A stretch of DNA of 64,000 nt from Candidatus Limnocylindria bacterium. Lineage in GTDB: Bacteria > Chloroflexota > Limnocylindria > P2-11E. A program made the position numbers and the translations under genes. Numbering within the stretch: the stretch's first letter is position 1; the number at the start of each line of letters is the position of its first letter. The DNA is taken from contig DASYUC010000003.1 of NCBI GenBank assembly GCA_036001645.1, forward strand, positions 21,439 to 85,438, written 5' to 3'. Below, piece by piece: positions 1,875 to 40,795 of the stretch. The notes beneath the pieces were generated by a model, which was not told the DNA's origin, ran no database searches, and saw only the letters and a program-made list of their open reading frames with translations.

Positions 1875-2552
1875 TCAGAGAAAGTTGAAGAGCTGCGGCA
1901 GGCGCGCGAACTGACCGGACACGAGGACAAGTCCCATCACGATCACGAGCGTTCCGCCCGCGAGATTCAGGACACGGATACCGCGAGCGAGCGCACGCGT
2001 GACGCGACGCGTTCCACCGATGCCCGCAGCGATGACGAGGAACGGCACGCCGAGGCCGAGCGCGTACGCGAGCAGCAGCACCGCGCCGGACGCGAGGTCC
2101 TCGTTGAGGAGCAGGTCGAGGATCAGGGCGAGGTACGGGCCGACGCACGGCGTGAAGCCGATGCCGAAGGCGAGACCGATGAGGAACGACCGCGGTAGAC
2201 CGGTCGTGTTGCCTTCGAGACGCAGGTCGAGCTCGCGCATGAGGAACGGGATCGTGATGAGGCCGACCATGTGCATCCCGAGCACGATGAGGAGGATCCC
2301 GCCGATCCGCTGCAGCCAATAGACGAGGTCGCCGGCGAGCGCGCCGACGAGCGCGATCGCGACCCACAGCAGCGTGAACACGAAACTGAAGCCGAGGACG
2401 AATGCGACCGCGTGCGCGACCGTGCGCGCGCGTTGCGTACCAGCCAGCGCCGCCTCACCGGCCATGTTCACCAGGAATGCGGGCACGAGCGGGAGGACGC
2501 AGGGCGAGAGGAACGAGAGAATGCCCGCGCCGAACGCGATCACGACGTTCAT
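1875..2552 (-). CDS. ccdA: cytochrome c-type biogenesis / thiol-disulfide electron transfer protein CcdA (DsbD transmembrane domain family)
   Basis: Six-TM protein with the two conserved Cys motifs SPCVLPLVPAFL and FTPCVGPYL. Confidence 0.85.
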   Translation of the reverse strand: MNVVIAFGAGILSFLSPCVLPLVPAFLVNMAGEAALAGTQRARTVAHAVAFVLGFSFVFTLLWVAIALVGALAGDLVYWLQRIGGILLIVLGMHMVGLITIPFLMRELDLRLEGNTTGLPRSFLIGLAFGIGFTPCVGPYLALILDLLLNEDLASGAVLLLAYALGLGVPFLVIAAGIGGTRRVTRALARGIRVLNLAGGTLVIVMGLVLVSGQFARLPQLFNFL

Positions 2553-2660
2553 TCGGCCAGCGTAGCCAACGGTCGCGCTTCGGTGTCGCCCTGTTCAGTA
2601 AGTCTTCCTTTTCGCCTCCCGTGAGCGCACCATCCGCTGTCTCGACTGGGCGGAGATGAG

Positions 2661-6778: not shown

Positions 6779-6808
6779 GGCGTTGAGTATGCGGGGTAGC
6801 GTGATGCC

Positions 6809-7177
6809 GTGAGGGATGGAACGGGGCAGCGTCCGCGCGTGATCGTCGTCGAAGACGACGGCGATATCGCGTCGCTCCTCTCCGACATCTTCGAGACGGA
6901 GGGGTACACGCCGATCGCGGTCTCCGACGCCGCTGGCTTCAGCGAACAGATCGATCCCCCGCCCGATCTCGTGGTGTTGGACCTACGTCTCTCTCGCAGC
7001 GGCGCGGAACAGATCCTGACTGAGCTGCGCACGCACGGGATGGGAGACGTTCCGGTCCTTCTTCTGAGCGCAGCCAGCAATCTCCCCGAGCGCGCGCGCG
7101 CGCTTGGCGTCACGTCCTATCTCGCCAAGCCATTCGAGCTGGAGGATCTGCTCGTCGAGGTACGCCGGCTCATCTGA
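6809..7177 (+). CDS. single-domain response regulator (CheY-like receiver)
   Basis: VIVVEDDGDIASLL...DLVVLDLRL...LAKPFELEDL; receiver only, no output domain. Confidence 0.8.
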   Translation: MRDGTGQRPRVIVVEDDGDIASLLSDIFETEGYTPIAVSDAAGFSEQIDPPPDLVVLDLRLSRSGAEQILTELRTHGMGDVPVLLLSAASNLPERARALGVTSYLAKPFELEDLLVEVRRLI

Positions 7178-7244
7178 GTGGCTGCCGTTGGACGGTTGTT
7201 ACACGCGCTGAGCTCGCGGGCCCGCGGAACTGCTGGCGCGCCGC

Positions 7245-8548
<1,304 letters not shown>

Positions 8549-8576
<28 letters not shown>

Positions 8577-9571
8577 CGGCCGCGAGCGTGTGGTTCCCGC
8601 GCGCGCGGGAAGTCGAGCTTCGCGAGGAGACCGTCCGCGGACCGGGACCCGGCGAGGTCCGCGTCCGCGCCATCGCATCGGGGCTGTCGCACGGGACCGA
8701 GATGCTCGTGTTCCGCGGCGAGGTCCCGGCTGATCTCGCGCTGGACCTGCCGACGCTGGCGGGCAGCTACGGCTTCCCCATCAAGTTCGGTTACGCGAGC
8801 GTGGGCCGCGTGGTCGAGGTCGGCGCGGGCACAAATCTCGCGCCAGGCGATCACGTCTTCGTTCATCATCCTCATCAGCAGGAGTACGTCGTCAGCGCCG
8901 CCGCGGCGGTGCGCCTCCCCCAGCGCCTACCACCCGAGCTCGGCGTGTTCCTCGCGAACTGCGAGACGGCGCTCAACGTCGTCCTCGACGCGCACCCGCG
9001 TCTCGGCGAGGATGTCGTCGTCTTTGGCCAGGGCGTCGTCGGCCTCCTCGTGACGCAGCTCCTGGGTCTCGCCGGCGCGCGCGTCACCGCGGTCGAGCCG
9101 ATCGCGCTGCGTCGCGAGCTCGCGCTGCGCTGCGGCGCGGATGAAGCGGTCACGCCGGAAGCCGCGCCGGCGCGGATCGCGGCACGCACGAATGGCCGCG
9201 GCGCGGACGTCGTGATCGAGGCCAGCGGGAACGCGCGCGCGCTGCAGGCCGCGATCGACGCGGCCGCCTTCCAGGGCTCCGTGATCGTGTGCTCCTGGTA
9301 CGGCAGCAAGCCGGTCAGCCTCGACCTCGGTTCGCGCTTCCATCGCGCGCGGCTGCGTCTGGTCAGCTCCCAGGTCTCACAGCTCGACCCCGCGCTTGCG
9401 CCGCGCTGGGATCGCCAGCGGCGATTCGATACCGCCCTCTCGCTGCTCGGCGAGCTCGTCATCGGGCCGCTCATCACGCACCGCATTCCCTTCACTCGCG
9501 CGGCGGAGGCCTACGAGCTCGTTGACCAACGGCCCGAGGAGACCGTGCAGGTGATCCTCACCTACGACTGA
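8549..9571 (+). CDS. medium-chain dehydrogenase/reductase (zinc-dependent alcohol dehydrogenase-like) oxidoreductase
   Basis: GPGEVRVRAIASGLSHGTEM..., Rossmann motif VVVFGQGVVGLLVTQL; alternative GTG start at 8573 overlapping the upstream stop (GTGA). Confidence 0.7.
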
Positions 9572-9578
9572 GCGAGCG

Positions 9579-10574
9579 GTGCTGCTCGTCAACGGCGACC
9601 TCGCTCGCCGGACAGGTGGCAACCTCTATGACCAGCACGTGGCGCACGCCTGCCGGCGCGCGGGCCTGGCGCTTCGGATCGTTCCCGTCGCATCGACGGC
9701 GCAGGCGCGTTCCGCGCTCGCGCGCCTGAAGCCGAGCGTCATCGTGATCGACAGCATCGCGATCCCCGTCGTCGCGCCGCTCGTCGGTTGGGCGCACCAG
9801 GAGCTACGTGCGCGCGTCGTCGCTCTCATGCACATGCCAACGACCGCACGTGGAACGCGCGCGGTCCTGCGAGCGGCCGACCGCGTCATCGCGGTGAGCC
9901 CCGACCTCGCTCGCACGCTCTCGCGAACCGGCGTGCCGCGGTCGCGTCTGGTGGTCATCCCGCCAGGGTCCGACGGCATCCCGCGCGTCTCGCGTCGACG
10001 GCGAGGGGCGCCACGCGATGCTGGCGCGCTCCGGATCCTCGCGGTCGCGAACTGGTCGCCGGCGAAGGGCATCGCGACGCTTGTGGCAGCGGCCGCGCAG
10101 GTGCCGGACGTCCATCTCGATCTCGTCGGTGACGTCGGCGCGGGCGCGTACCCCGACGCCGTGCTCTCGCGCATCAGATCGAGCGAGCTGGGGCCTCGCG
10201 TCCACGTGTACGGCGCGCTCGAGGGGCGGACGCTCGCGCGCCGTTTCGCGGAGGCGGACGTCTTCGCGCTGCCGACGGAGCGCGAGGGTTACGGGATCGT
10301 CTTCGCCGAAGCGCTCCAGCGCGGCCTGCCGATCATCGCGGGGGACATCGCTACGGTGCGGGCGATCGTTGGCGACGCCGGACTGTATGTGCCGCCCCGA
10401 CGGGTGCGGCCCCTTGTGAGCGCACTGCGGCTCATGACCGACGCGTGGCTCCGACGCAGGCTCGCGAGAGCGGCGCGGGTCCGTGCGCGGGCGCTACCGA
10501 CCTGGGCCGCCAGCGGAGCTCGTTTCGGCGACCTCGTCAGAAACGAGATGCGGGCGTCCGTTGCCCGGTCGTGA
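9579..10574 (+). CDS. glycosyltransferase family 4 (GT4, group 1)
   Basis: C-terminal GT-B motif ...EGYGIVFAEALQRGLPIIAGDI...; N-terminal VLLVNGDLARRTGG. Confidence 0.8.
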   Translation: MLLVNGDLARRTGGNLYDQHVAHACRRAGLALRIVPVASTAQARSALARLKPSVIVIDSIAIPVVAPLVGWAHQELRARVVALMHMPTTARGTRAVLRAADRVIAVSPDLARTLSRTGVPRSRLVVIPPGSDGIPRVSRRRRGAPRDAGALRILAVANWSPAKGIATLVAAAAQVPDVHLDLVGDVGAGAYPDAVLSRIRSSELGPRVHVYGALEGRTLARRFAEADVFALPTEREGYGIVFAEALQRGLPIIAGDIATVRAIVGDAGLYVPPRRVRPLVSALRLMTDAWLRRRLARAARVRARALPTWAASGARFGDLVRNEMRASVARS

Positions 10575-10733
10575 TCGCAGTGTCTCTACGGCCGTTGGAT
10601 CGATGCGTGACCATGTATGGCCGTCCGCGCCTCCGGCCGCGCAGTACGCCCACGCGCGCTGCTCAAAAGTGATCGACGGATCGCCACGACGCTCGTGCGT
10701 CCCGATGCACACGAACTCGATCAGCGCAGCCAT
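10494..10733 (-). CDS. small Cys/His-containing protein, paralog B (unknown function)
   Basis: MAALIEFVCIGTHERRGDPS...AWAYCAAGGADGHTWSRIDP aligns residue-for-residue with 5434..5622; GGGAGG SD 8 nt upstream of ATG; C-terminal tail overlaps end of GT4 gene on the other strand. Confidence 0.5.
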   Translation of the reverse strand: MAALIEFVCIGTHERRGDPSITFEQRAWAYCAAGGADGHTWSRIDPTAVETLRSRPGNGRPHLVSDEVAETSSAGGPGR

Positions 10734-10823
10734 CCCGCAAACCTCCCACTGAACCCCTGGTCGTCATGGTCCACCGGAACGAGCGCTGCTGCTTGACGGC
10801 GCGTAATTCGCTGTTTTGCGTTG

Positions 10824-10837
10824 GGCGCAAATGCGCC
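10824..10837. promoter_or_regulatory. perfect inverted repeat GGCGCA-AA-TGCGCC in promoter region of small-protein paralog B
   Basis: Lies in the 180-bp lower-GC spacer between CBS stop and small-gene start. Confidence 0.25.
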
Positions 10838-10914
10838 GAGCGCTGACGACGTCGGCGTCTTGCGCTGCTGGCGCTAATTAAGAGACGACGAAAATGCCCA
10901 CGCGCGATCCGCGC

Positions 10915-12294
10915 TCAGCGGGCGCGCCGCCGCTGATGCGCGACGAACTCGAGCAGGTCCGCCTTGGTGATGATCGAAACGGGACGGTCGTCGGACGCTG
11001 CGAGCAGCGCCGGGACGCCGGAGGAGAGCTCGGCGTAGAGGCGCTCGATGTCCTCGTTCGCCTGCACCACCGGGAACGGCGCCTCCATGACGCGCTCGAC
11101 GCGCTCGTCGACGAGCGCGGGCTCGCGGAAGACGCGGTCGAGCATCGTGGTCTCCTGGACGCTGCCGACGATGTCCGTGACGAAGGTGGCCTCGCCGTCG
11201 CCGACGACGGGGATCTGCGAGATGCCGTAGCGCTGCATCGTGTCGATGGCCGAGCGCACGCTCTGCTCCTTGGACACGACGATGAGGCCGGGCGTGCCCA
11301 TGCGGTCGCGCACCACATCGAGCACCGTCGCGTGCACCGGGTAGCGTTCGAGGTAGCCGTTCTGCCGCATCCATTCGTCGTTGTAGATCTTCGAGAGGTA
11401 CGAGCGGCCCGAGTCGGCGAAGAGCACCAGGATGAGCGCGCTCTCGTCCAGCTCCTTGGCGACCTCGAGCGCCGCGAACATCGCGGTGCCCGATGAGCCA
11501 CCGACGAGGATGCCCTCCTCGCGCGTGAGGCGGCGTGCCGTGAGGAATGAATCGCGGTCGGACACGCGCATCCACCGATCGACGAGCTTGGGATCGAACG
11601 TGCCGGGGTAGAAGTCCTCGCCGATGCCCTCGACCTTGTACGGATGGATGTCTCCGGTGTAGAGGGACCCCTGTGGATCGGCGCCGATGATCTGAATGGA
11701 CGCGTTCCGCTCCTTCAGGTAGCGGCCCGCGCCCGTCACCGTGCCGCCGGTGCCGATGCCGAGCACCAGGTGCGTCACCTTCCCATCGGTCTGCTCCCAG
11801 ATCTCCGGGCCGGTCGTGTTGTAGTGCGCCTCGGGATTCATCGGGTTGTAGTACTGATTCGGCAGAAAGCCGCCAGGTGCTTCTTTCGCGAGCCGCTCCG
11901 CAACCTTGTAATAGGACTCCGGCGAGTCGGGCGGCACGGCGGTGGGACAGATGACGACCTCCGCGCCGAACGCGCGCAGCAGGTCGCGCTTCTCCTGGCT
12001 CTGCTTGTCGGCCATCGTGCAGATGACGCGGTACCCCTTGATCGCCGCGGCCATCGCGAGGCCAACGCCGGTGTTTCCGCTGGTCGGCTCGACGATCGTC
12101 CCACCCGGCTTGAGCAGACCGCGCCGCTCGGCGTCCTCGATCATGCGCAGGCCGATGCGGTCCTTGATCGAGCCACCGGGATTCAGGTGCTCGAGCTTGC
12201 CGACGAGCGTTGGCTTCAGACCTCGCCCGATGCGCGAGAGTCGGACCAGCGGTGTGTTCCCGACGAGCGCAAGGATGTCCGACGCGAGTTCCAC
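10915..12294 (-). CDS. cbs: cystathionine beta-synthase (PLP domain plus tandem CBS domains)
   Basis: Near-colinear with mycobacterial Cbs: LVGNTPLVRL, NPGGSIKDRI, PTSGNTGVGLA, GIGTGGTVTGAGRYLKE, C-terminal CBS pair. Start set to GTG at 12294 (M-ELASDILALVGNTPLV); the listed 605-aa ORF is an upstream extension overlapping the divergent gene. Confidence 0.9.
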   Translation of the reverse strand: MELASDILALVGNTPLVRLSRIGRGLKPTLVGKLEHLNPGGSIKDRIGLRMIEDAERRGLLKPGGTIVEPTSGNTGVGLAMAAAIKGYRVICTMADKQSQEKRDLLRAFGAEVVICPTAVPPDSPESYYKVAERLAKEAPGGFLPNQYYNPMNPEAHYNTTGPEIWEQTDGKVTHLVLGIGTGGTVTGAGRYLKERNASIQIIGADPQGSLYTGDIHPYKVEGIGEDFYPGTFDPKLVDRWMRVSDRDSFLTARRLTREEGILVGGSSGTAMFAALEVAKELDESALILVLFADSGRSYLSKIYNDEWMRQNGYLERYPVHATVLDVVRDRMGTPGLIVVSKEQSVRSAIDTMQRYGISQIPVVGDGEATFVTDIVGSVQETTMLDRVFREPALVDERVERVMEAPFPVVQANEDIERLYAELSSGVPALLAASDDRPVSIITKADLLEFVAHQRRRAR

Positions 12295-12351
12295 TGCGCG
12301 TGATGTTAGGTCGTATCCCCAGCGGGTCGGTCTGAGGTAAGGTCGTTCGGT

Positions 12352-12819
12352 ATGGCGCCGGTCGTGACCGAGGACACCCTGACCCGCGAGCTCGTCGTGC
12401 GTGTCCCGCCGGAGCAAGCGTTCGCGGGTTTCGTGAATCTCGGGCGGTGGTGGCCGCGTGAGTACACGTGGTCGCTGGATGTCCTCCAGAGCATCGGCAT
12501 CGAGCCGCGGCTCGGCGGCGCGTGCTTCGAGCGCGGGCCGAACGGATTCGAATGCGACTGGGGGCGCGTCCTCCTGTGGGACCCGCCGCGCCGGATCGTG
12601 TTCAGCTGGCAGATCGCGTTCGACCGCACGCCGGAGCCGAACCCCGCCAAGGCGAGCGAGGTCGAGGTGCGCTTCAGCGAAGACGGACTCGGGACGCGCG
12701 TGGCGCTCGAGCATCGCGCGTTCTCTCGCCACGGTGAAAGGGCCGCGGCCTACCGTGCCGGCATGGCCTCACCCAGTGGCTGGCCGATGATGCTGGAGCG
12801 CTTCGCCCGGTCGATCTAG
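12352..12819 (+). CDS. SRPBCC-superfamily protein (AHSA1/polyketide-cyclase-like)
   Basis: 155 aa, pattern VRVPPEQAF..F.NLGRWWP...W typical of the Aha1/SRPBCC domain. Confidence 0.7.
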   Translation: MAPVVTEDTLTRELVVRVPPEQAFAGFVNLGRWWPREYTWSLDVLQSIGIEPRLGGACFERGPNGFECDWGRVLLWDPPRRIVFSWQIAFDRTPEPNPAKASEVEVRFSEDGLGTRVALEHRAFSRHGERAAAYRAGMASPSGWPMMLERFARSI

Positions 12820-12829
12820 CGGGCCGAAC

Positions 12830-13330
12830 CTAGCGCTCGAGCAGCATGTATGCACCGACCGCGATCAGCACGATCGGAACGAAGAACGGCTGCAGCTCAT
12901 CGGGTAGGTGCAGGCCGACCACCTCCGCGATCGCGACGAGCGCCAGAAGCCCGGCCGGGATGAGCAGCCCGCGATGGTCGGTGTACAGCATGAACGCGAT
13001 CGCGAGCCCGACCGCGAGCGAGCCGAGGAAGATCGGCGCCGCGGCGTCCGCCGGCAGCGGCAGCCAGGTCGGGATCACCAGCCCCAGACCGAAGCCAACG
13101 AGCACCGCGGCGGGGACGATGTAGACGTACTGACGCGTGCCCACGTACCACGCGGCAAGGAAGGCGACGCCAAGCGCGAGGATCAGATACGCCCCCGCGT
13201 TCGAGAAGCTGAGGTTGAAGTACGGCGCGAGCGCCTGGAGGAGGAACGGCGCGCCGACGGCGACGAGGATCGCGCCGCCGAGGATGCCGCGCCGTACCCC
13301 CATGGGTCGCGATGTCGCGCGCACGCTCAC
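12830..13330 (-). CDS. hypothetical integral membrane protein
   Basis: 166 aa, four to five hydrophobic helices, good composition. Confidence 0.5.
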   Translation of the reverse strand: MSVRATSRPMGVRRGILGGAILVAVGAPFLLQALAPYFNLSFSNAGAYLILALGVAFLAAWYVGTRQYVYIVPAAVLVGFGLGLVIPTWLPLPADAAAPIFLGSLAVGLAIAFMLYTDHRGLLIPAGLLALVAIAEVVGLHLPDELQPFFVPIVLIAVGAYMLLER

Positions 13331-13339
13331 GTCCTTCCC

Positions 13340-14557
13340 CTAGGCGTCGGGCAGCGCACCCGCGTCCAACCGCCGCGCGGCCTCGCCCTGCAACGACTCC
13401 GCGTACTTTAGCCCGCTGCCGGTGTTGAAGACGACGACGCTCTCGTCGTCGTGGATCCAGCCGTCGCGTCGCAGCTTCGCCGCGGCGGCGATCGCGGCCG
13501 CGCCCTCCGGGCACACGAGCATCCCCTCCATCGCGCCCACGAGGCGCATCATGTCGCGCATCTCGTCCTCGGTGATGGCGAGCGCGATCCCCGCGCTCTC
13601 GCGCAGCGCGCGCAGGACGAGGAAGTCGCCGAGCGCCTTGGGCACGCGGAGGCCAGCGGCGAAGGTCTCTGGATCCGGCCACGGCTCCGATTCGCTCGCT
13701 CCGCTCTCGAAAGCGCGCACGATCGGCGCGCAGCCGGCCGCCTGCGCCGCGACGAAGCGCGGCATGTCGTCGCGCGCGATCCAGCCGATATCGCGCAGCT
13801 CCGCGAACCCCTTCCACATCCCGATGAGGCCCACACCGCCGCCGGTCGGGTAGACGATGACGTCGGGCAGCTTCCAGTCGAGCTGTTCGGCGAGCTCGAA
13901 GCCCATCGTCTTCTTGCCTTCGATGCGGTACGGCTCCTTCAGCGTGGACGCGTCGTACCACCCGCGCTCGGTGCAGGCGCGCTTCACGACCGCGCCGGCG
14001 TCCGCGATCGAACCCGGCACCAGGTAGACCTCCGCGCCGTACGACGACGTCTCGCGCACGATCGTCTGCGGCGTCGTGTCGGGCATGACGACGACCACGC
14101 GGATGCCCGCGCGCGCCCCGTACGCCGCCCAGGCGGCGCCGGCGTTGCCCGCGGTCGGGAGGGCGATCGTGCCCACCCCGAGCTCGAGCGCGCGCGTGAC
14201 GCCGACCGCGGCGCCGCGCGCCTTGAACGTCCCGGTCGGCAACAGGCCCTCGTCCTTCACGCGCAGGCCGGGGATGTCGAGCTCCTCGCCAATGCGCCGC
14301 GCGTCGAGGAGCGGCGTGTTCGGCTCGCCGAGGGTCACGACGCGCTCGGGATCCTCCATGGGCAGGAGCTCGCGGTAGCGCCAGAGGGTCGCGGGACGCC
14401 GCGCGAGCACCTCGCGCTGCATCGCCTCGTGGACCTTCTCGAGGTCGTAGCGGACGAGCAGCGGGCCACCGTCGTTGACGCAGGTCTGCTGCAGCGTGTC
14501 GATCTGGAAGTCCTCGCCGCCGCGCGAGCACTCGAGGTGCGTCGCGAAGGACGTCAC
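13340..14557 (-). CDS. thrC: threonine synthase
   Basis: PLP lysine motif GTFKARGAAVG, full-length similarity to short-form ThrC. Confidence 0.9.
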   Translation of the reverse strand: MTSFATHLECSRGGEDFQIDTLQQTCVNDGGPLLVRYDLEKVHEAMQREVLARRPATLWRYRELLPMEDPERVVTLGEPNTPLLDARRIGEELDIPGLRVKDEGLLPTGTFKARGAAVGVTRALELGVGTIALPTAGNAGAAWAAYGARAGIRVVVVMPDTTPQTIVRETSSYGAEVYLVPGSIADAGAVVKRACTERGWYDASTLKEPYRIEGKKTMGFELAEQLDWKLPDVIVYPTGGGVGLIGMWKGFAELRDIGWIARDDMPRFVAAQAAGCAPIVRAFESGASESEPWPDPETFAAGLRVPKALGDFLVLRALRESAGIALAITEDEMRDMMRLVGAMEGMLVCPEGAAAIAAAAKLRRDGWIHDDESVVVFNTGSGLKYAESLQGEAARRLDAGALPDA

Positions 14558-15831
14558 GCCGCGCGTTCGATCTTCGCGCCGAGCGCCCGAAGACGCGTGT
14601 CGAGGTCCTCGTAGCCGCGGTCGATCTGGTCGACGTTGCTGATGACGCTCTTGCCCTTCGCGCAGAGCGTCGCGGCGAGGAGGGCCATGCCCGCACGGAT
14701 GTCGGGGCTCCGCAGGTCGGTGCCGTACAGCTGCGAGGGCCCGACGACGACCACGCGGTGCGGATCACACAGCACGAGGCGCGCGCCCATGCTCTCGAGC
14801 GAGCCGACCCAGTACATGCGTGCGGGGAACATCCACTCGTGGATGAGCACCGTGCCTTCCGCCTGCGTCGCAAGTGCGGTGGCGATGCTCGTGAGGTCGG
14901 TCGGGAAGCCCGGCCAGATCTGCGACTTGATCGTCGGGATCGCGCCCCCGATGTCATCTTCGATGACGTAGTGGTCCCTCGCCTTCACGACGAGGTCGTC
15001 GCCGACCACCTCGGTCTCGACGCCCAGGCGCTTGAACACCATCCGCGTCATCCGCAGGTACTGCGGCACGGCGTTCTTGATCGTGGCTTCGCCGTGCGTC
15101 ATGGCGATCGCGCCGATGAGCGACCCGACCTCCATGTGATCGCTGAGGATCGTGTGATCGATGCCGCGCAGCCGCTCGACGCCCTCGATCGTGACCGTGT
15201 TGGTGCCGATCCCCTCGATGCGGGCGCCCATCCGCACGAGCGCCCGCGAGAGCTGCTGCACATGCGGCTCGCTCGCGGCGTTGTGCAGCACCGTCGTCCC
15301 CTTCGCGAGCACGGCGGCCAGCAGCGCGTTCTCCGTTGCGGTGACCGAGGCCTCATCGAGGATCACGTCCGCCCCACGCAGGCCGGATGTGCGCAGCGCG
15401 TAGCCGTCGCGCTCGACGTCGAGCTCCGCGCCGAGCGCGCGGAGCGCGAGGAAGTGCGTGTCGGTGCGACGCCGGCCGATGACATCGCCGCCGGGCAGGC
15501 CGAGCTTCACCTCCTTGTGGCGCGCGAGCAACGGACCGGCGAAGAGGAGCGAGGTCCGGATCTCGCCGGCGAGCGCCGCGGGTACCTCGGTCGACCGGAT
15601 CGTTCCGGTGATGCGGACGCTGCGCGCATCGACCTCGTCCACCGTCGCGCCGAGCGCGCTCGCGATCTCGAGCATTCCGCGCACGTCGCGGATGCGCGGC
15701 ACGTTGTGGAGCGTGACCGGCTCGTCGGTGAGCAGGGCCGCCGCGATGAGCGGCAGCACCTCGTTCTTGTTGCCCGCCGGACGGATCTCTCCGCGCAGCG
15801 GGGTACCGCCCTCGACGATGAAGCGTGCCAT
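14554..15831 (-). CDS. murA: UDP-N-acetylglucosamine 1-carboxyvinyltransferase
   Basis: MARFIVEGGTPLRGEIRPAGNKNEVLPLIAAALLTDEPV...; 4-nt overlap with thrC. Confidence 0.9.
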   Translation of the reverse strand: MARFIVEGGTPLRGEIRPAGNKNEVLPLIAAALLTDEPVTLHNVPRIRDVRGMLEIASALGATVDEVDARSVRITGTIRSTEVPAALAGEIRTSLLFAGPLLARHKEVKLGLPGGDVIGRRRTDTHFLALRALGAELDVERDGYALRTSGLRGADVILDEASVTATENALLAAVLAKGTTVLHNAASEPHVQQLSRALVRMGARIEGIGTNTVTIEGVERLRGIDHTILSDHMEVGSLIGAIAMTHGEATIKNAVPQYLRMTRMVFKRLGVETEVVGDDLVVKARDHYVIEDDIGGAIPTIKSQIWPGFPTDLTSIATALATQAEGTVLIHEWMFPARMYWVGSLESMGARLVLCDPHRVVVVGPSQLYGTDLRSPDIRAGMALLAATLCAKGKSVISNVDQIDRGYEDLDTRLRALGAKIERAA

Positions 15832-15838
15832 CGGCGGC

Positions 15839-17386
15839 CTAGCCTAGCCCGATGGCGACGGCGGGCTTGAGCTGATCGACGCCGCCGCGCAGCTCGCCCG
15901 TCTTCGGGTCGATGAGGATCGCGTTCGGGCGCGCGAACCAGGCGGACATGAGCGTCTCTTCTTTCACGTCGATCTGATGCCCGAGCGCCGCGAGGCCGGC
16001 ACGCACGTCTTCCGGGATCCGCGAATCCACCAGCAGCCCCTCGCCCTCGTCGTGCACGCGCGGACGGTTCACCGCGTCCTGCGGTCCGTCGCCGAAGTCG
16101 ACGACATTGACGATCGCCTGCGTGACCGCGCTCATGATCTTGCGGCCGCCGGGCGCGCCGACCGCCAGCAGCGGCGCGTCGCCGCGAACGATGAGCGTCG
16201 GCGCACCCGCCCACAGCACGCGCTTCCCCGGTGCGATCGAGTTGGGATTTCCCGGCACCGGGTCGAACCAGGTCATGCCGTCGACCATGACGATCCCGGT
16301 CCCCTTCGGCACGAATCCGGATCCAAATCCCTGCCCGAGCGTCTGCGTGAGCGCGACCATCGTGTGTTCCTTGTCGATCGCGTTGAGGTGCGTCGTGTGA
16401 TCCGCGAGCTGCGAGAAGCGATAGAGGAACGCCGCGCGTAGCGCCTCGGCGACCAGATGCAGGTGATCGACGCCGCCACGCTCCTTCGCGCCGAGGGGGA
16501 ACGCGTCCAGCACGGTGAGAGCGCGCGCGACCGTTGCCCCGCCCGACAGGCCGTCGAGCGTGATCACGCGATGCCCGCGGTACATCGTCTGGAGCGGCGT
16601 CCCGACGCGCGCCTCGTACTTCGCGAGATCTTCCGCGGCGAGCGCACCGCCGTTGGCACGGACATCGGCCACGATCGTGCGAGCGATCTCGCCGCGATAG
16701 AGCACCTCGGGACCGTCGCGCGCGATGACTTCGAGCGTCCGCGAGAGATCCGTCTGAACGACGCGGTCCGAAGGCTCGGTGCCGATCGGTGGACGGAGCG
16801 GCGCGCCGCTGGGGCGGAAGAAGATGCGGCGCGCGTCGCCGGCCTTCCACAGGCGCTCGGCGTACATCGCGAACGCCAGCGCGACGTACCAGTCGATCTC
16901 GAAGCCGTCTCGCGCGAGCCTGATCGCCGGCTCCATCACACGAGCGCGCGGCAGCGAGCCGTATCGCTCGAGTGCGAGGCACAGGGCCGCGGCCTGGCCC
17001 GGGACGGTCACCGACGTCGCCCCCTCGAAGTTCGCACCGTTCTTCACGGCGGGCCACATGTACATGCCCGCACGCGCACCGCCACCGACGAGCTCGAACA
17101 TGTCGGCACGCGCACCGAGCGGCGCGCACGTGCCGCCCTCCACGGACACGACGGTCCCGTCGGCGCGGCGTATGACGAGACCGGCGATCCCGCCGATGCC
17201 GCTGGTGAACGGTTCGACGACGCCCATCACGAACGCCGCGGCGACCGCGGCGTCGACGGCATTCCCGCCCTCGCGCAGCATCTCGACACCTGCATCTGCC
17301 GCGAGGTGATGCTCCGCCGTGACCATGCCGCCGCGAGCGACGGGCTCGCTCTTGTAGTGATGCCACTGGCTGCGGACGTCGGTCAT
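15839..17386 (-). CDS. ggt: gamma-glutamyltransferase
   Basis: GGT family including nucleophile region TQTLGQGFGSG; start trimmed to ATG at 17386 (MTDVRSQ...), which overlaps the upstream stop by 1 nt (TGATGA); the listed 785-aa ORF has an Arg-rich artefactual extension. Confidence 0.85.
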   Translation of the reverse strand: MTDVRSQWHHYKSEPVARGGMVTAEHHLAADAGVEMLREGGNAVDAAVAAAFVMGVVEPFTSGIGGIAGLVIRRADGTVVSVEGGTCAPLGARADMFELVGGGARAGMYMWPAVKNGANFEGATSVTVPGQAAALCLALERYGSLPRARVMEPAIRLARDGFEIDWYVALAFAMYAERLWKAGDARRIFFRPSGAPLRPPIGTEPSDRVVQTDLSRTLEVIARDGPEVLYRGEIARTIVADVRANGGALAAEDLAKYEARVGTPLQTMYRGHRVITLDGLSGGATVARALTVLDAFPLGAKERGGVDHLHLVAEALRAAFLYRFSQLADHTTHLNAIDKEHTMVALTQTLGQGFGSGFVPKGTGIVMVDGMTWFDPVPGNPNSIAPGKRVLWAGAPTLIVRGDAPLLAVGAPGGRKIMSAVTQAIVNVVDFGDGPQDAVNRPRVHDEGEGLLVDSRIPEDVRAGLAALGHQIDVKEETLMSAWFARPNAILIDPKTGELRGGVDQLKPAVAIGLG

Positions 17387-24516: not shown

Positions 24517-25038
24517 TCAGCAGCCGGCGCGGATCGCGTCGATGACGTTCGCCGACACCAACGGCCGTCCGGGGCAGTCGAGGAACGAACCGACCGCGCG
24601 CGGCCCGTCCGCCACGAACACGCGAAGCCCTGCATTCGCACCGCGAAAGTCGACCGCGGTCCGGCCGCTCCGATCCACAGTCGTCGACGAGGCTCCGAAC
24701 CGGGTCTGGAACTCGCGCGCCTCCGCGGTGTCGCGCGCGAGGGCCACCAGAGCGCCGTCTGTGACCTCGGTGGTCCGCATGAAATGCTCGAACCGAGCGC
24801 ACGCGAAGTACGGCCGCGTCGTGTGAGCGAGAACGACGATCAGGAGGCCGCCGATGATGAGGGGAGCTCCGAGGATCCGGTTCGTCGCTGCGACGCCGAG
24901 CGCCATGATCGCCGCGCCGCCTGCGACCAGGAGGCCCCAGGGGTCGTAGTAGGTAGCGCCCAAAAGCCCGCTGCGAGAGCGGCTGCGAGGAGCGCGCGGG
25001 GCCACGAACGCATGGTCAGACCTTCGCCAGCGCTCCAT
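24517..25038 (-). CDS. hypothetical protein (one TM segment)
   Basis: ORF with reasonable composition downstream of the CGS-like gene; start uncertain. Confidence 0.3.
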   Translation of the reverse strand: MERWRRSDHAFVAPRAPRSRSRSGLLGATYYDPWGLLVAGGAAIMALGVAATNRILGAPLIIGGLLIVVLAHTTRPYFACARFEHFMRTTEVTDGALVALARDTAEAREFQTRFGASSTTVDRSGRTAVDFRGANAGLRVFVADGPRAVGSFLDCPGRPLVSANVIDAIRAGC

Positions 25039-26209
25039 CGAGGTCGGCGACGATATCGTCGGGGTCTTCGATACCGACGGAGAAACGGAGCGTGCCCTCG
25101 TTGATCCCAAGACGCGCCCGCTCCTCTGGCGCGACGCGCCGGTGGGACGAGATCGCGGGGTAGAGGACCTCGCTGAAGAGATCGCCCAGCGTCGTCGCCG
25201 AGGCCGCGAGCTGAAGGGCGTCGAGGAAGCGGAAGGCCGCGGGCTTCGTCGCGTCTTTGAGGTCGAACGTGACGACGCCGCCGAAGAGGCCGCCGAACTG
25301 CCGCCGCGCGAGATCGTGCTGCGGGTGATCGGGCAGACCGGGATAGCGCACGCGCGCGACCTTGGGATGCCGGCTGAGATGCTGAGCGACGCGGAGCGCG
25401 CTCTCGCACTGACGGCGCACGCGCAGCTCGAGCGTGCGCATGCCGCGGATGCACAGCCACGCCTCGTGCGGCGGAAGGTACGCGCCGTCGAGGATGGTGC
25501 GGTCGCGCATCGCCTTCGCGACCGCGGCGCTGCCGGCGACGCTGCCGGCCATGACGTCGCCGTGGCCGTTCACGTACTTCGTGAGCGAGTGGATCACGAC
25601 GTCGGCGCCGAGCGTCGCGGGCCGCAGCAGGACCGGTGACGCGAACGTCGCATCGACCGCGAGCGTGGCGCCGCTGCTATGTGCGAGCTTCGCGAGCGCG
25701 GCGATGTCCGTGATGCGCAGCAGCGGGTTCGCCATCGCCTCGATGTACAGCAGCGTCGTCGGCGCCTCGCGGAGAGCGGCTTCGACCTTCCGGTGGTCGG
25801 TCGCGTCGACGAAGACGATCTTCGCGCCGCGCTCACGGATCCAGCGCTCGAACAGGGCGCGGACCTGGCCGTAGATGTCCTCCTGCGCGACGATGCGACC
25901 GCCGGTCGCGACCGCGCAGGCATCGGCGAACGCTGCGATCGCCGCCATGCCCGACACGAAACAGGTCGCCGCGGCCGTGCCCTCGAGCTCCGCGAGCGCC
26001 ATCTCGAGCGCCGCCGTCGTCGGCGTGCCGTAGCGGCCGTAGACGTAGCCGGCGCGGTCGTTACCGAAAACGTCGTCCTGCGCGGCGGCGGAGCGATAGT
26101 CGAACGCGACACTTTGGACGAGGGGCGGCGCGACCGGAACGCCTTCGCCGGGTGGTAGCGCGCGCGCAGACCGCACCACGCGCGTGCCGATCCGAGCTTC
26201 CTTCCCCAT
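25016..26209 (-). CDS. Cys/Met-metabolism PLP-dependent enzyme (cystathionine gamma-synthase/beta-lyase family), second copy
   Basis: SLTKYVNGHGDVMAGS lysine motif, full-length fold. Confidence 0.85.
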   Translation of the reverse strand: MGKEARIGTRVVRSARALPPGEGVPVAPPLVQSVAFDYRSAAAQDDVFGNDRAGYVYGRYGTPTTAALEMALAELEGTAAATCFVSGMAAIAAFADACAVATGGRIVAQEDIYGQVRALFERWIRERGAKIVFVDATDHRKVEAALREAPTTLLYIEAMANPLLRITDIAALAKLAHSSGATLAVDATFASPVLLRPATLGADVVIHSLTKYVNGHGDVMAGSVAGSAAVAKAMRDRTILDGAYLPPHEAWLCIRGMRTLELRVRRQCESALRVAQHLSRHPKVARVRYPGLPDHPQHDLARRQFGGLFGGVVTFDLKDATKPAAFRFLDALQLAASATTLGDLFSEVLYPAISSHRRVAPEERARLGINEGTLRFSVGIEDPDDIVADLDGALAKV

Positions 26210-26233
26210 CGTCCGCGAGTCTAGGTGCGTGGG

Positions 26234-38349: not shown

Positions 38350-38601
38350 TCAGCGGAGCAGCGCCACCGTCCCCGCCGCGTCTCGCTCGAGCGGATGGGC
38401 CGCGTAGCCATGCTTCGCGTAGAGGCGCAGGTACAGCGGAAGGAACGCGAGGCCGAGGCGTCCGTACTGCTTCACGTGCCGCAGCTCGTGCCGCCACAGC
38501 GCATCCGTCGGCTCACGCGCGAACACGACGACGTGTCCGAAGGTGATCGCCGCATAGCCGCGGCGCGTGAGCACGAGGTGCGCGAGGCCGCGGTCGCTCA
38601 C
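38350..38601 (-). CDS. small DUF4157-like zincin-motif protein
   Basis: AAITFGHVVVFAREPTDALWRHELRHVKQ matches the DUF4157 core (..T.G..I.F......LLAHEL.HV.Q) with HExxH. Confidence 0.45.
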   Translation of the reverse strand: MSDRGLAHLVLTRRGYAAITFGHVVVFAREPTDALWRHELRHVKQYGRLGLAFLPLYLRLYAKHGYAAHPLERDAAGTVALLR

Positions 38602-39000
38602 ATAGAGGTAGCAGCCGTCGCGGAAGCGCGGACGCGCGAACGAGAGCCGGCCGAGAACGTGACCGATCGGATCGGCGTGATGAGCGATGAGCTCGCGCGC
38701 GACGCGACTACTGTTCGACGCTATCGACGACCGCCTGCACCGCCGCGGTCACCCGTTCGGCGGTCGTGACGCGCGGATCGAAGCGCAGCGTGAGCTTTCG
38801 GTCGATCGCCTCCATGCTCACGCTGACCACTCCCTCGATCTTCCTGCAACCCGTCACGACCTGTGACGCACAGGAGCTTCACATCAGTGCCGAGATCTCG
38901 AGCGAGATCTCCTCGAGGTCGGCCGCGGCAGAGGCCGCGGGCGCGCGAGGCCCGGCGTCCGGCGTCAGTGCCGGCGAGCCGCACGCGACGACCGCGACCA

Positions 39001-39049
39001 CCAAAAGGAAGGGCGCCAAACGCACAGGGTGATTGTGCGCTTGGCGCCC
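39001..39049 (-). terminator. intrinsic terminator after the CsbD-like gene
   Basis: 15-bp stem (1 mismatch) GGGCGCCAAGCGCACA/UGUGCGUUUGGCGCCC with 7-nt loop, followed by UUCCUUUUGG on the minus strand. Confidence 0.5.
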
Positions 39050-39073: not shown

Positions 39074-39307
39074 CTAGTGGTCGACGTCCTCGACCGGCGG
39101 GTGGTCTTCCTTGAATTCGCCGATGCCCTGCTTGATCTTGCCTTTGGCCTGGTCCACCTTGCCGCCGATCTCGGTCGAGCGGTCGCCGCCGATCTTTCCA
39201 ACTTGCTCCTTGACCTTGCCCTTCGCTTCGTCGAACTTGCCTTCGACCTGCAACTCGTCCCCCGTCTTGTCTTTCATCGTCTTGTCTTTCATCGTCTTGT
39301 CCTTCAT
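39074..39307 (-). CDS. CsbD-family general stress protein
   Basis: GKFDEAKGKVKEQVGKIGGD...GKVDQAKGKIKQGIGEFKE; GGAGG SD 6 nt before ATG 39307. Confidence 0.8.
   Translation of the reverse strand: MKDKTMKDKTMKDKTGDELQVEGKFDEAKGKVKEQVGKIGGDRSTEIGGKVDQAKGKIKQGIGEFKEDHPPVEDVDH
39263..39307 (-). repeat. 3 x 15-nt perfect/near-perfect tandem repeat encoding MKDKT-MKDKT-MKDKT at the CsbD N-terminus
   Basis: cgtcttgtctttcat x2 + cgtcttgtccttcat on the plus strand. Confidence 0.7.
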
Positions 39308-39376: not shown

Positions 39377-40054
39377 CTAGAGCGTGAGGAGGATGAGCGG
39401 GAGGTTGTTCGCTAGGTCGATCGCACCCACGACGACGAGGACGACTCCCGCGACGCGCGAGACGACCTCGCGGTGCCGCGCGAAGAACAGCACCAGCGAT
39501 CGCTGCTTCGAATACGCGAGCAGTGAGATCGCGAGCAGTGGCAGACCGAAGCCGAGCCCGAACGCCATGAAGAAAGCGAACGCGCCGATGAAGCTGTCGA
39601 ACGACAGCGACAGCCCGAAGAGGGCAACGAGCAAGGGCGCGGCGCACGGCAGCGCGATCGGTCCGTACAGCACGCCATACGCGTAGGCCGAACGGATCGT
39701 TCCTCCGCCGACCTTCGCGGGACCGAGCACCGGGAGCCTCGCGAACGGATCGTGGCCGAACAGGAGCACGATCCCGAGCGCGATGACCACGATGTCGGCC
39801 AGCGGCGTCACGATCCGCAGCACGCTTGACGTCGACAATGCGAGCGCAGCCATGAGCGCACCGAGGACGACCATCGTTGTGAGCACTCCCGCCAGGACGA
39901 CCAGCCCGAGCCACGGAGCGGCACGCGACGGGACGCCGTCCTCGCGGCGCGCGGCCAGGTACGCCAGGAATCCCGGATAGAGCGGAAGGGCGCACGGCGA
40001 CACCGTCGCGAACAATCCGATGGCGAAGCCGGTCGCGAGCTCGCTGGCTAGCAC
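39377..40054 (-). CDS. ccdA: CcdA-family thiol-disulfide electron transfer membrane protein, second paralog
   Basis: FATVSPCALPLYPGFL and PIALPCAAPLLVALFG motifs; GTG start 3 nt after the stop of the TlpA-like gene. Confidence 0.8.
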   Translation of the reverse strand: MLASELATGFAIGLFATVSPCALPLYPGFLAYLAARREDGVPSRAAPWLGLVVLAGVLTTMVVLGALMAALALSTSSVLRIVTPLADIVVIALGIVLLFGHDPFARLPVLGPAKVGGGTIRSAYAYGVLYGPIALPCAAPLLVALFGLSLSFDSFIGAFAFFMAFGLGFGLPLLAISLLAYSKQRSLVLFFARHREVVSRVAGVVLVVVGAIDLANNLPLILLTL

Positions 40055-40057
40055 GCT

Positions 40058-40660
40058 CTAAGCGCGGTAGCGGTCGACGAGCATGCGCACCGTGTTCGCG
40101 TCGCGGTGACCGAATGGAACGAGGTGCGCTTCTCCCTTCGGGTCCACGATGAACATCGGCTCGGACGGTGGCGTGAGGAACTGCGTGCCGAATGCGCGCT
40201 GCAGCTCGACGAGCATCTCCCGCGGCGCGAGCGCGAACCGCCAGCCAAAGCCGTGCTGTTCCGCGAACCGCCTCAGTTGATCAGCGTTCTCTGTCGTGTC
40301 CACGTCGATCGAGACCATGAGCACGTCCGACCCGAGGCTCGGGAGGGTGTCCTTCACAACCAACTGCTGTGAGAGGCAGCTCAGTCACCAGACCGCCATG
40401 CCTTCGACGATCACCGTCTTGCCCGCGAATCCGTCCAGCGTGAAGCGCTCGCCGGTGCGAACGTCGGTGAGTGCGATGCGAAGGACGGGCGACGAGGCGG
40501 ACGATGCAGGCGATGCCGCGCTCGTTGGCGTCGCCGAGGCGGTGACGGCCGTGGCCGCGACGTCGGTACGCGGCGGCGCGCTCGCGGCGGGCGGCGTCAC
40601 GGCGCCGCAGGCCACGCAGGCGACGACGAGCGCAAGCGCTACGCCCGGGGCGATCCGCAC
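40058..40660 (-). CDS. TlpA/ResA-like thioredoxin-fold lipoprotein interrupted by in-frame TGA at the first Cys position of the CxxC motif (W-TGA-L-S-C); candidate selenoprotein or nonsense-mutated pseudogene
   Basis: The N-half (lipoprotein signal MVRIAPGVALALVVAC, ...FAGKTVIVEGMAVW) and C-half (LSCLSQQ...VSIDVD...FIVDPKGEAHLVP) are in the same frame, separated only by TGA at 40385-40387; the two listed ORFs 40385..41461 and 40058..40363 are its halves. Confidence 0.55.
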
Positions 40661-40795
40661 CACGTCGATGCTACGGCGCGAGCGTGCTGTCGGATGCGGG
40701 CCGCGACGCGAACACCGGTCGGCGATGGAGCGCGGCGAACGGCGATGGCGCTCACCAGTTGACGGTCGGGCCGCCACCCGTTCATCGTTGGCGCC

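Follow-up and report, generated by a model that had tools for sequence, protein, structure and literature searches.

A tlpA-like gene from Candidatus Limnocylindria, crossed by an in-frame TGA at the codon of its nucleophilic residue, is best explained as encoding one full-length, lipid-anchored extracytoplasmic TlpA/ResA-type reductase of ~200 amino acids whose nucleophile is selenocysteine (Sec; W-U-x-x-C). We put the probability of this reading at roughly 0.85. The gene lies within a stretch of 64,000 nucleotides (hereafter the window), and as a UxxC selenoprotein with a thioredoxin fold it adds a well-supported member to a known class.

The interrupted gene and its protein family

The tlpA-like gene (40058–40663, minus strand) is ~201 codons long and runs in one frame through the internal TGA (40385–40387, minus strand) to a TAG stop (40058–40060). 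Translation of the minus strand across window positions 40055–40663 gives VVRIAPGVALALVVACVACG...GKTVIVEGMAVW-TGA-LSCLSQQLVVKDTLPSLG...RYRA-TAG, in which codons 1–92 make up the N-terminal part up to the TGA and the residues around it read TVIVEGMAVW-U-LSCLSQQLVVK. The TGA, the proposed Sec codon, occupies the nucleophilic position of W-U-L-S-C, and the resolving Cys of the UxxC motif (TGC, 40376–40378, minus strand) is invariant, with one synonymous TGT (L013). Eight full-length homologs (P0001–P0008) carry WCxxC at exactly the TGA column. The initial annotation had described two same-frame open reading frames parted by a TGA at the first Cys of a WCxxC motif, and both the frame and the homolog alignment agree with this description. 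In public annotations the halves appear as hypothetical proteins, and the gene tables of two related loci (L001, L003) show the gene as split at the TGA.

By eye and by ortholog conservation, the start codon is a GTG at 40663 or 40660, and the first residues form a putative signal peptide with a lipobox (..LALVVAC16-VAC19-G; 40607–40663, minus strand). The candidate lipid-modified Cys is encoded at 40616–40618 (VVAC) or, three residues on, at 40607–40609 (CVAC); orthologs keep a hydrophobic stretch followed by [VF]-[VA]-A-C-G-G. The joined product had also been proposed to be a TlpA/ResA-type lipoprotein, which the profile and fold matches below bear out, together with the signal peptide recognised by eye.

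The joined protein scores 23.5 bits against the Pfam Redoxin model (gathering score 26.6), and its closest Cys homolog (P0001, 55% domain identity) carries a precomputed PF08534 match. Searched against the PDB, the family profile matched the thiol:disulfide interchange protein 3or5 (E=2.5e-9), TlpA (1jfu, E=3e-5) and also ResA. An AF2 model of P0001 (pLDDT 90) places W65-C66 directly before helix 67–83, and Foldseek matched this model to TlpA-like 3or5, ResA, DsbE/F, TlpA and Sco-like structures at E-values of 1e-7 to 1e-10. As modelled through P0001, the protein has a thioredoxin fold with the CxxC column at the N-terminus of helix alpha1. Bacillus subtilis ResA, which works with CcdA, and Bradyrhizobium TlpA are likewise membrane-anchored extracytoplasmic WCxxC thioredoxin-fold proteins that are re-reduced via CcdA/DsbD; both use a nucleophilic Cys, whereas Sec is proposed in that place here. 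While ResA (1st9/1su9), TlpA (1jfu/4txv) and 3or5 match by structure and profile, sequence identity to them is below 25%, and the NCBIfam TlpA and ResA equivalogs score the protein far under their cut-offs.

Within the TlpA-like superfamily (cd02966), predicted UxxC selenoproteins are an already listed class from marine metagenomes and Deltaproteobacteria, entered as ‘thiol-disulfide isomerase-like protein’ and ‘thiol:disulfide interchange protein’ (PMC13188914 and PMC1794560, Table 1 of each), with MGB1650493.1 and MDE0950781.1 as reference TlpA-like selenoproteins (PMC13188914, Table 1). The listed proteins share with the one described here the thioredoxin fold, Sec as the first residue of UxxC, the existence of Cys homologs and a SECIS within the coding region. 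Compared with those families by description only, the present clade differs in being a lipoprotein of soil Limnocylindria/Chloroflexota with the motif MAVW-U-x-x-C-L-[SA]-Q-Q and with ccdA always next to it. None of the NCBIfam selenoprotein models recognises either this protein or the second candidate described below. The second-best NCBIfam match of the tlpA-like protein, NF041054, is also a TlpA/ResA-like selenoprotein family, but its 354-position model carries the motif WAxxUGC, in contrast to W-U-x-x-C in ~200 amino acids here, and with 19.3 bits, far under the cut-off of 300, the protein is not a member. NF041057 (the Rcas_1661 family, named after Roseiflexus), a thioredoxin-like lipoprotein family with Sec forms from the same phylum, was rejected too (9.4 bits, cut-off 190, the match lying in the signal-peptide region only).

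Conservation of the TGA and of a downstream hairpin

At this codon 17 other loci also have TGA, with protein identities of 52–100% (L001, L003, L005, L008–L010, L012–L021 and L027; the MAG records are L008, DASYUY01; L009, DATKCP01; L010, JANMSU01; and L013, CAJDUG01). It is identical in an independent assembly (L003), is kept amid flanking synonymous changes in L005 and L001, and is found in three Candidatus Limnocylindria/Chloroflexota MAGs at 72–75% identity, in 10 metagenome loci, in L019 at 58% and in L027 at 52%. The TGA-bearing forms comprise at least 13 distinct sequence variants, and this divergence among the contigs excludes a single clonal misassembly. The initial annotation had suggested checking whether relatives carry TGC or TGA here: related loci carry TGA, and TGC or TGT is confined to outgroups (L011, L022–L025 and P0001–P0008), with all remoter homologs having Cys. 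In a phylogenetic tree all 15 U-forms group as one clade, sister to the Cys-form P0001.

Purifying selection is similar on the two sides of the TGA, with dN/dS of 0.18 upstream and 0.16 downstream at a mean dS of 0.62–0.72. Among the 16 close loci, 14 keep the frame open as far as the conserved stop, as do L019 and L027. The copies in L002, L020 and L021 are broken, frameshifted or rearranged, which indicates that some strains can do without the gene. Of the 55 genes predicted in the window, 31 end in TGA as an ordinary stop, so the genetic code is not reassigned.

Following the UGA, within the coding sequence, lies a SECIS candidate predicted by RNAfold, UCACAGC-AGUUG-GUUGUGA (40351–40376, minus strand; -10.3 to -12 kcal/mol). 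It consists of a 7-bp upper stem, UCACAGC/GUUGUGA (40354–40372), of which 6 bp are invariant; a 5-nt apical loop, AGUUG (40361–40365), that starts 20 nt after the UGA (19-nt spacing); and a lower stem, CCU/AGG, with a 1-nt bulge. Bacterial SECIS elements (bSECIS) are described as having an apical loop of 3–9 nt, an upper stem of 4–16 bp, a G in the first two loop positions, a UGA-to-loop distance of 16–37 nt and an MFE of at most -7.5 kcal/mol (PMC13188914). The candidate agrees with this description in loop size, stem, loop G, spacing and MFE.

The six core pairs are unbroken in 16 of 16 aligned orthologs, the sole variable core position changing from G-U to A-U. Codons +7 and +9 to +11 after the TGA (CAG, GTT, GTG and AAG) are codon-invariant in 14 of 14 sequences, and codon +8 is TTG in 13 of the 14, with TTC (Phe) in L019. 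Rare codons are kept in the hairpin of this otherwise GC3-rich gene, TTG accounting for 3.7% of Leu codons and GTT for 3.3% of Val codons in the window. Pair counts over the aligned orthologs gave no significant covariation, because the hairpin is nearly invariant; its support is this invariance and not compensatory change. The single-sequence folding z-score of the hairpin is unremarkable (-0.46). At gathering thresholds, the only Rfam matches of the window are three tRNAs; a permissive scan of 40250–40450 gave no match, to a bacterial SECIS family or otherwise.

No convincing SECIS had been recognised in the initial annotation, a view that the UCACAGC hairpin, which overlaps the hairpin noted there, now revises. 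That earlier 6-bp hairpin, AGCUGC/GCAGUU, is present and, as described, has no G in its first two loop positions; a small CCCGA/UCGGG hairpin reported further downstream was found as well. AGCUGC/GCAGUU is also largely conserved in orthologs, and pair counts do not separate it from UCACAGC/GUUGUGA. It was nevertheless set aside, because its 9-nt spacing and missing loop G break two bSECIS rules and because the hairpins of L027 and of the second TGA gene share the geometry of the other one. In the L027 paralog, as in the second gene, the UGA stands at the first Cys of CxxC; it is followed in L027 by GGCGC-AGUU-GCGCC. The stems of these two hairpins differ from that of the tlpA-like gene, but they share its loop motif and spacing, the loop being AG[G/U]U and starting 17 nt after the UGA in both.

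The E. coli fdhF-type SECIS likewise forms a stem-loop directly after the UGA, inside the open reading frame, with a small apical loop. The hairpins described here resemble bSECIS in having G then G/U at loop positions 2–3 and a UGA-to-loop distance of 16–19 nt, although they share no primary-sequence similarity with the fdhF element. The fdhF SECIS has a bulged U in its upper stem, and none is evident here.

A second TGA gene and the ccdA neighbourhood

A ccdA-like gene of 225 codons for a DsbD_TM protein (39377–40054, minus strand; PF02683, E=1e-11) begins with a GTG 3 nt past the tlpA-like stop, and its product retains both conserved Cys residues (..VSPCALPLYPGF.. and ..IALPCAAP..). The preserved TlpA-CcdA operon context reported initially holds more widely, since wherever a U-form or Cys-form locus extends far enough, as in Anaerolineae and Haloferax, a ccdA-like gene adjoins tlpA. 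At none of the loci inspected does tlpA-ccdA have genes for cytochrome c maturation (resBC/ccs) or cox/sco as neighbours, and no client gene is consistently found beside the pair in the more distant loci. In the closest clade a small csbD-like gene (39074–39307, minus strand; PF05532, E=5e-15) is syntenic; in the window it separates the ccdA-like gene from a second gene with an in-frame TGA.

This second gene (38708–39025, minus strand), ~1.5 kb downstream of the tlpA-like gene, is a candidate selenoprotein gene for an HMA/MerP-like lipoprotein, VRLAPFLLVVAVVAC-G...ISALM-TGA-SSC..., with the TGA (38879–38881) in M-U-S-S-C and the spanning peptide ...EISALM-U-SSCASQVVTGCR. Its motif L-M-U-S-S-C compares with the M-x-C-x-x-C metal site of HMA, MerP and CopZ domains. 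It matches Pfam HMA over profile positions 2–58 of 62 (E=1e-4; 23.0 bits, with the cut-off at 24.8), and its best NCBIfam matches, all below cut-off, are MerTP (31 bits), UxxU metal-binding (seleno)protein (30) and MerP (27.7). The TGA is conserved in 8 loci, with dN/dS of ~0.43 on each side. One ortholog (P0011/L026) has TGC in its place and an unchanged hairpin, which implies that Cys is functionally acceptable at this site; on the 4.2-kb contig of this ortholog there is no tlpA-like or ccdA gene upstream of csbD.

RNA folding placed a SECIS candidate at 38842–38875 (minus strand; -16 kcal/mol, z=-2.5), kept in the 8 TGA loci. It has an upper stem CGUCAC/GUGACG, a lower stem CCUGUG/UGCAGG and a loop AGGUC (38858–38862) that starts 17 nt after the UGA; in L012 a U-A pair is changed to U-G. 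When the window was scanned for in-frame TGAs flanked on either side by coding signal, the tlpA-like and HMA-like genes alone emerged, the other matches being antisense frames of real genes. Among the 1350 TGA triplets of the window the hairpin pattern, a motif defined post hoc, likewise fits only these two.

Decoding of the UGA and a proposed redox role

The initial annotation had held a nonsense mutation or sequencing error to be as likely as recoding. A TGC-to-TGA change in a decaying pseudogene, or a sequencing or assembly error, would need a single base, and it would fit the Redoxin score just under the gathering threshold and the rearranged or frameshifted copies in L002, L020 and L021. 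It does not fit the recurrence of TGA in 17 other loci, which stem from independent samples and different assemblers, the equal dN/dS on either side at a dS of about 0.6–0.7, the open frame in the close loci, L019 and L027, or the monophyly of the U-forms with Cys only in outgroups, and we regard it as close to negligible. Judged by these sequence comparisons, the TGA is not a pseudogene mutation or an error. The TGA might instead be a true stop, yielding an N-terminal lipoprotein fragment that ends at the Trp and a C-terminal fragment restarted at the TTG (40361–40363) or at the GTG, with the invariant nucleotides serving as the restart signal. The gene callers that split L001 and L003 at the TGA are consistent with such a pair, as are the invariant TTG (apart from the TTC of L019) and GTG 8–10 codons past it. 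However, translation could restart at the TTG at the earliest, and the seven codons that separate it from the TGA behave as coding: the Cys codon varies only between TGC and TGT, and codons +4 and +6 only between CTC and CTG (Leu) and between CAA and CAG (Gln), a synonymous pattern near the UxxC Cys which indicates that they are translated. As two fragments, the protein would also be without its catalytic nucleophile, and its fold would be broken between beta1 and alpha1; neither TTG nor GTG is preceded by a Shine-Dalgarno-like purine run; and the HMA-like gene and the L027 paralog are built likewise, a TGA followed by a hairpin, yet differ in sequence and lack a codon for an equivalent restart. 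Two polypeptides are thus very improbable.

There is somewhat more room for a UGA that is recoded with a residue other than Sec, either Cys via selC*/selB*, a tRNA(Cys) resembling tRNA-Sec paired with a SelB paralog, or Trp, Cys or Arg by hairpin-stimulated near-cognate read-through, yet this too is unlikely. Systems with selC* tRNA(Cys) have been described in Deltaproteobacteria and may use SelB-like factors, and the TGC-bearing ortholog of the HMA-like gene suggests that Cys can serve at such a site. In the genomes examined, however, selC* was reported alongside complete Sec systems; retention of a costly UGA-plus-hairpin down to 52% identity would be hard to explain for Cys insertion with TGC one base away; Trp or Arg would destroy the conserved redox motif; and the hairpins match the Sec-specific bSECIS consensus. 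We therefore infer that the residue inserted at the UGA is Sec rather than Cys. More speculatively, the UGA could be read by a tRNA/SelB pair of a non-canonical kind, of 8/4 tRNA-Sec or selC* type.

The lineage background accords with Sec usage in part. Chloroflexi are recorded as Sec users with tRNA-Sec, for which an 8/4 acceptor/T-stem form has been reported, and one of the NCBIfam families is a thioredoxin-like (seleno)lipoprotein of Chloroflexota. Searches by tblastn for selA, selB and selD in the 64-kb window and ~200 kb of related loci gave no match; the queries were E. coli SelD, SelB and SelA sequences, which match the corresponding Pfam families. The two other TGA-plus-hairpin genes of the lineage, the HMA-like gene and the L027 paralog, speak for such machinery indirectly. 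ARAGORN, run on the window and 21 loci, detected no tRNA-Sec, and a literature search for Limnocylindria or Ellin6529 together with selenocysteine returned no report.

We propose a model in which the UGA at 40385–40387 is recoded co-translationally, with a SelB-type elongation factor carrying Sec-tRNA(Sec) presumed to bind UCACAGC-AGUUG-GUUGUGA 13–31 nt downstream, within the coding sequence. By analogy with ResA-CcdA and TlpA, Sec-pathway export and lipidation would leave the protein anchored to the outside of the cytoplasmic membrane, where it would alternate between selenol/thiol and selenylsulfide states. The translationally coupled CcdA-like protein would re-reduce it, the electrons probably flowing outward from cytoplasmic thioredoxin, and the reductase may in turn reduce disulfides or a selenylsulfide of exported clients. 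The HMA/MerP-like U-x-x-C lipoprotein is a candidate client in the closest clade only. There, tlpA(U)-ccdA and this lipoprotein could form a dedicated extracytoplasmic selenol relay, in which the CcdA-fed Sec reductase would keep the selenylsulfide of a Sec-containing (Hg/Cu) metal-binding lipoprotein reduced; we offer this as a speculative extension that is doubtful at present. If true, it would be a case of a selenoprotein with another selenoprotein as its client, in aerobic soil Chloroflexota.

The general understanding of Sec decoding and of TlpA-CcdA systems is unchanged by these results; descent from Cys ancestors among thioredoxin-fold UxxC proteins is the commonest way in which selenoproteins arise. 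Both TGA genes are split or dropped by gene callers, and the three natural candidate SECIS variants with their common AG[G/U]U loop could guide the annotation of selenoproteins in Chloroflexota. Taken together, the two genes add two predicted exported seleno-lipoproteins to Limnocylindria, a widespread uncultured soil class, and the Sec reading implies that these bacteria would have Sec machinery and a need for selenium.

The in-frame TGA of the tlpA-like gene

On the minus strand, window positions 40663..40058 translate as a single frame, VVRIAPGVALALVVACVACG ... GKTVIVEGMAVW-TGA-LSCLSQQLVVKDTLPSLGSDVLMVSIDVD ... VDRYRA-TAG, in which the in-frame TGA occupies 40385-40387. The GTG start of a 225-aa ccdA-like ORF (39377-40054, minus strand; PF02683 DsbD/CcdA transmembrane domain, E=1e-11) lies 3 nt past the TAG. 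The joined protein, with cysteine read at the TGA, matched Redoxin weakly (23.5 bits; gathering score 26.6), and W-C-x-x-C was found at exactly the TGA column in all eight full-length homologs. Given the single frame, the adjoining CcdA-type ORF and the motif in eight homologs, the initial annotation accurately described a TGA at the first Cys of the CxxC of a TlpA-like, CcdA-coupled protein. TGA terminates 31 of the 55 genes predicted in the window, indicating that the codon is not reassigned.

A family profile searched against solved structures recovered TlpA-like, ResA and thioredoxin chains (3or5, E=2.5e-9), with fATWCPPC aligned to mAvWCtnC. The structure model and PDB comparison rest on P0001, the closest Cys homolog, standing in for the window protein; the predicted structure (pLDDT 90) places the first Cys directly before helix alpha1, and its best PDB matches were Aquifex aq_2194, TlpA-like 3or5, BsSco, ResA, DsbE/DsbF and TlpA. 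The proposed TlpA-CcdA operon context was confirmed, with the two genes adjacent in every locus covering the region, whether the site encodes TGA (U-form, U being the proposed selenocysteine, Sec) or TGC/TGT (Cys-form), including those of Anaerolineae and Haloferax. Genes for cytochrome c maturation or cox/sco were not found next to the pair in any locus inspected. The window contains a further CcdA/DsbD_TM gene of more canonical type (MNVVIAFGAGILSFLSPCVLPLVPAF...) at 1875-2594 (minus strand), and the ccdA beside the tlpA-like gene is therefore a paralog. Elsewhere in the window (~5630-15843 and 25016-26233), several PLP-enzyme genes have the look of sulfur-amino-acid metabolism when their translations are judged by eye (two cystathionine gamma-synthase/lyase-like copies, a cystathionine beta-synthase-like gene with CBS domains and a threonine synthase-like gene).

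Conservation of the TGA in relatives

The database match P0009 is a 113-aa "hypothetical protein" ending ...GKTVIVEGMAVW, and its contig (L001) shares the TGA, past which the frame stays intact. Among contigs carrying an identical CcdA protein, the independent assembly L003 is identical to the window across the TGA region, and L005 encodes W-TGA-L-N-C with synonymous changes around the TGA. A scan of species-representative genomes identified matches of 72-75% identity in two Candidatus Limnocylindria MAGs and one Chloroflexota MAG, each of which has TGA, in the motif W-U-L-S-C or W-U-R-S-C; an Anaerolineae homolog (30% identity) has TGT at the site. A metagenome scan added ten TGA loci, with LS, LN, LA, RS, RN, SN, GN or VS at the xx positions, and four loci of 35-39% identity with TGC. 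A tandem paralog beside P0001, 52% identical to the window protein, encodes W-TGA-Q-T-C. The comparison of relatives proposed at the outset returned TGA in close relatives and Cys codons in P0001 and in homologs of 30-39% identity. The 15 U-forms that entered the neighbour-joining analysis grouped as one clade, sister to P0001, with Cys in every other homolog. dN/dS was 0.18 upstream of the TGA (33 codons) versus 0.16 downstream (107 codons; Nei-Gojobori, 13 distinct sequences, mean dS 0.6-0.7).

The retention of TGA across many loci, the equal constraint on its two sides and the single U-form clade reject the pseudogene or sequencing error that had been raised as an alternative. Translation as two polypeptides, with a restart at a TTG or GTG past the TGA, is likewise rejected, because the seven codons ahead of the restart show the substitution pattern of coding sequence (their Cys is invariant, with synonymous TGT) and because such a split would remove the nucleophile. 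A selC*-type tRNA that inserts cysteine at the UGA is a possible but unparsimonious explanation, as is generic read-through.

A candidate SECIS hairpin downstream of the UGA

RNAfold analysis of the window and L001 predicted a hairpin overlapping, but distinct from, the AGCUGC/GCAGUU hairpin noted initially. Its upper stem, UCACAGC/GUUGUGA, sits on a CCU/AGG lower stem interrupted by a single bulged base and carries an AGUUG loop that begins 20 nt past the UGA; the hairpin folds at -10.3 to -12 kcal/mol. All 16 aligned orthologs preserve the six core pairs, the only variable core position being G-U versus A-U, while the bulge is free to vary. No double compensatory changes were detected among these orthologs, and consequently covariation is not significant; it is conservation at synonymous sites that supports the predicted hairpin. 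Codons +7 and +9 to +11 past the TGA are codon-invariant in 14/14 sequences, 13 of which have TTG at codon +8, with TTC (Phe) in L019; in the rest of the gene, invariance is seen at only 18% of comparable codons. Codons that are rare in the window (TTG, 3.7% of Leu; GTT, 3.3% of Val) occur within the element. L019, at 58% identity, retains CACAAC-AGUUC-GUUGUG, and the corresponding region of Cys-form homologs is unrelated in sequence.

The published bacterial SECIS model specifies a 3-9-nt loop on a 4-16-bp upper stem, a G, usually then G or U, in the first two loop positions, a UGA-to-loop distance of 16-37 nt and an MFE <= -7.5 kcal/mol (PMC13188914). The conserved UCACAGC-AGUUG-GUUGUGA element agrees with all four requirements, contrary to the earlier view that no convincing SECIS was present. 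The AGCUGC/GCAGUU hairpin does exist, with five of six pairs conserved, but its loop lies 10 nt past the UGA and lacks a G in positions 1-2.

A second TGA-containing gene and proposed Sec decoding

When the window was scanned for in-frame TGAs flanked on each side by coding signal, one further case emerged, at 38879-38881 (minus strand), within an HMA/MerP-like lipoprotein gene (38708..39025, minus strand) that is a candidate selenoprotein with the motif L-M-U-S-S-C. A lipoprotein signal (VRLAPFLLVVAVVAC-G) precedes an HMA/MerP-like domain containing ...EISALM-TGA-SSCASQVV.... Pfam HMA matched below its cut-off (E=1e-4, 23 bits; cut-off 24.8), as did the top NCBIfam models (MerTP, "UxxU metal-binding (seleno)protein" and MerP). 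The TGA is kept in eight loci, with dN/dS ~0.43 on either side, and one ortholog of 76% identity (P0011, L026) has TGC. The predicted hairpin, CGUCAC-AGGUC-GUGACG (-16 kcal/mol, z=-2.5), has its loop from 17 nt past the UGA; in L012 one pair changes from U-A to U-G.

In the Cys-form L026 gene (2281-2595) the hairpin sequence is unchanged and may be a fossil SECIS. The contig, 4.2 kb long, has an MMPL-type transporter gene upstream of csbD in place of tlpA(U)-ccdA. Either a recent change from Sec to Cys or the loss of Sec use in this strain could account for this. Broken or rearranged copies, which may represent real decay or assembly chimeras, occur in L002 (72-503, an MMPL N-terminus joined to the final ~30 codons of the tlpA-like gene), in L020 and L021 (3777-4045, tlpA-like copies frameshifted or truncated) and in L010 (6144-6419, HMA-like gene disrupted).

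The csbD - HMA(U) - HExxH protein - lpd block downstream is restricted to the closest clade. The csbD-like gene begins with three tandem 15-nt repeats (39263-39307, minus strand) encoding MKDKT-MKDKT-MKDKT. Directly past its stop, a 16-bp GC-rich hairpin with a U-tract (39011-39049, minus strand; z=-8) has a 3' arm that takes in the beginning of the HMA-like gene, from its GTG (39025) through the first codons. The hairpin is kept in nine loci, L002 showing one compensatory change from A-U to G-C, and may act as a terminator for csbD, sequester the start codon, or do both. The 83-aa HELRH (HExxH) protein gene (38350-38601, minus strand; borderline eCIS_core/DUF4157-type Pfam match, 22.2 bits versus 22) shares synteny with the HMA-like gene across all close loci.

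Comparison with the W-TGA-Q-T-C paralog in L027, whose hairpin is GGCGC-AGUU-GCGCC with its loop from 17 nt past the UGA, showed that the stems of the three genes differ while an AG[G/U]U loop, starting 17-20 nt past the UGA, is common to them; the other two genes thereby lend the tlpA-like case independent support. A pattern defined after these hairpins were seen (stem >=5 bp, 4-5-nt AGNU loop, loop start 15-22 nt after TGA) matched only the tlpA-like and HMA-like hairpins among 1350 TGA triplets of the window. In L027 (4578-5740; also L028 and L029) the paralog is followed by the Cys-form P0001 gene and then ccdA; upstream in L027 (72% GC) are a sulfite-oxidase-like molybdoenzyme gene and a two-component system.

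We propose that SelB with Sec-tRNA(Sec) would bind the tlpA-like hairpin, leading to Sec insertion at the UGA. The protein would then be exported and lipidated, acting at the outer face of the cytoplasmic membrane as a selenol/thiol reductant that CcdA may recycle from cytoplasmic thioredoxin. No selA, selB, selD or tRNA-Sec was found in the 64-kb window or the related loci searched; selenoproteins and tRNA-Sec are on record for Chloroflexi in general.

Predicted families of UxxC selenoproteins have already been catalogued for the TlpA-like superfamily (PMC13188914; PMC1794560), and the tlpA-like protein scores far below the NCBIfam ResA-like WAxxUGC (19.3 bits; cut-off 300) and Chloroflexota selenolipoprotein (9.4 bits; cut-off 190) models. 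Sec in metal-binding and HMA-type contexts is likewise on record, and bacterial selenoproteins have most commonly arisen by conversion of Cys to Sec in thiol oxidoreductases. Judged from sequence, what is new here is the lineage, the pairing of two candidate seleno-lipoproteins in one cluster and the putative SECIS loop motif common to them.
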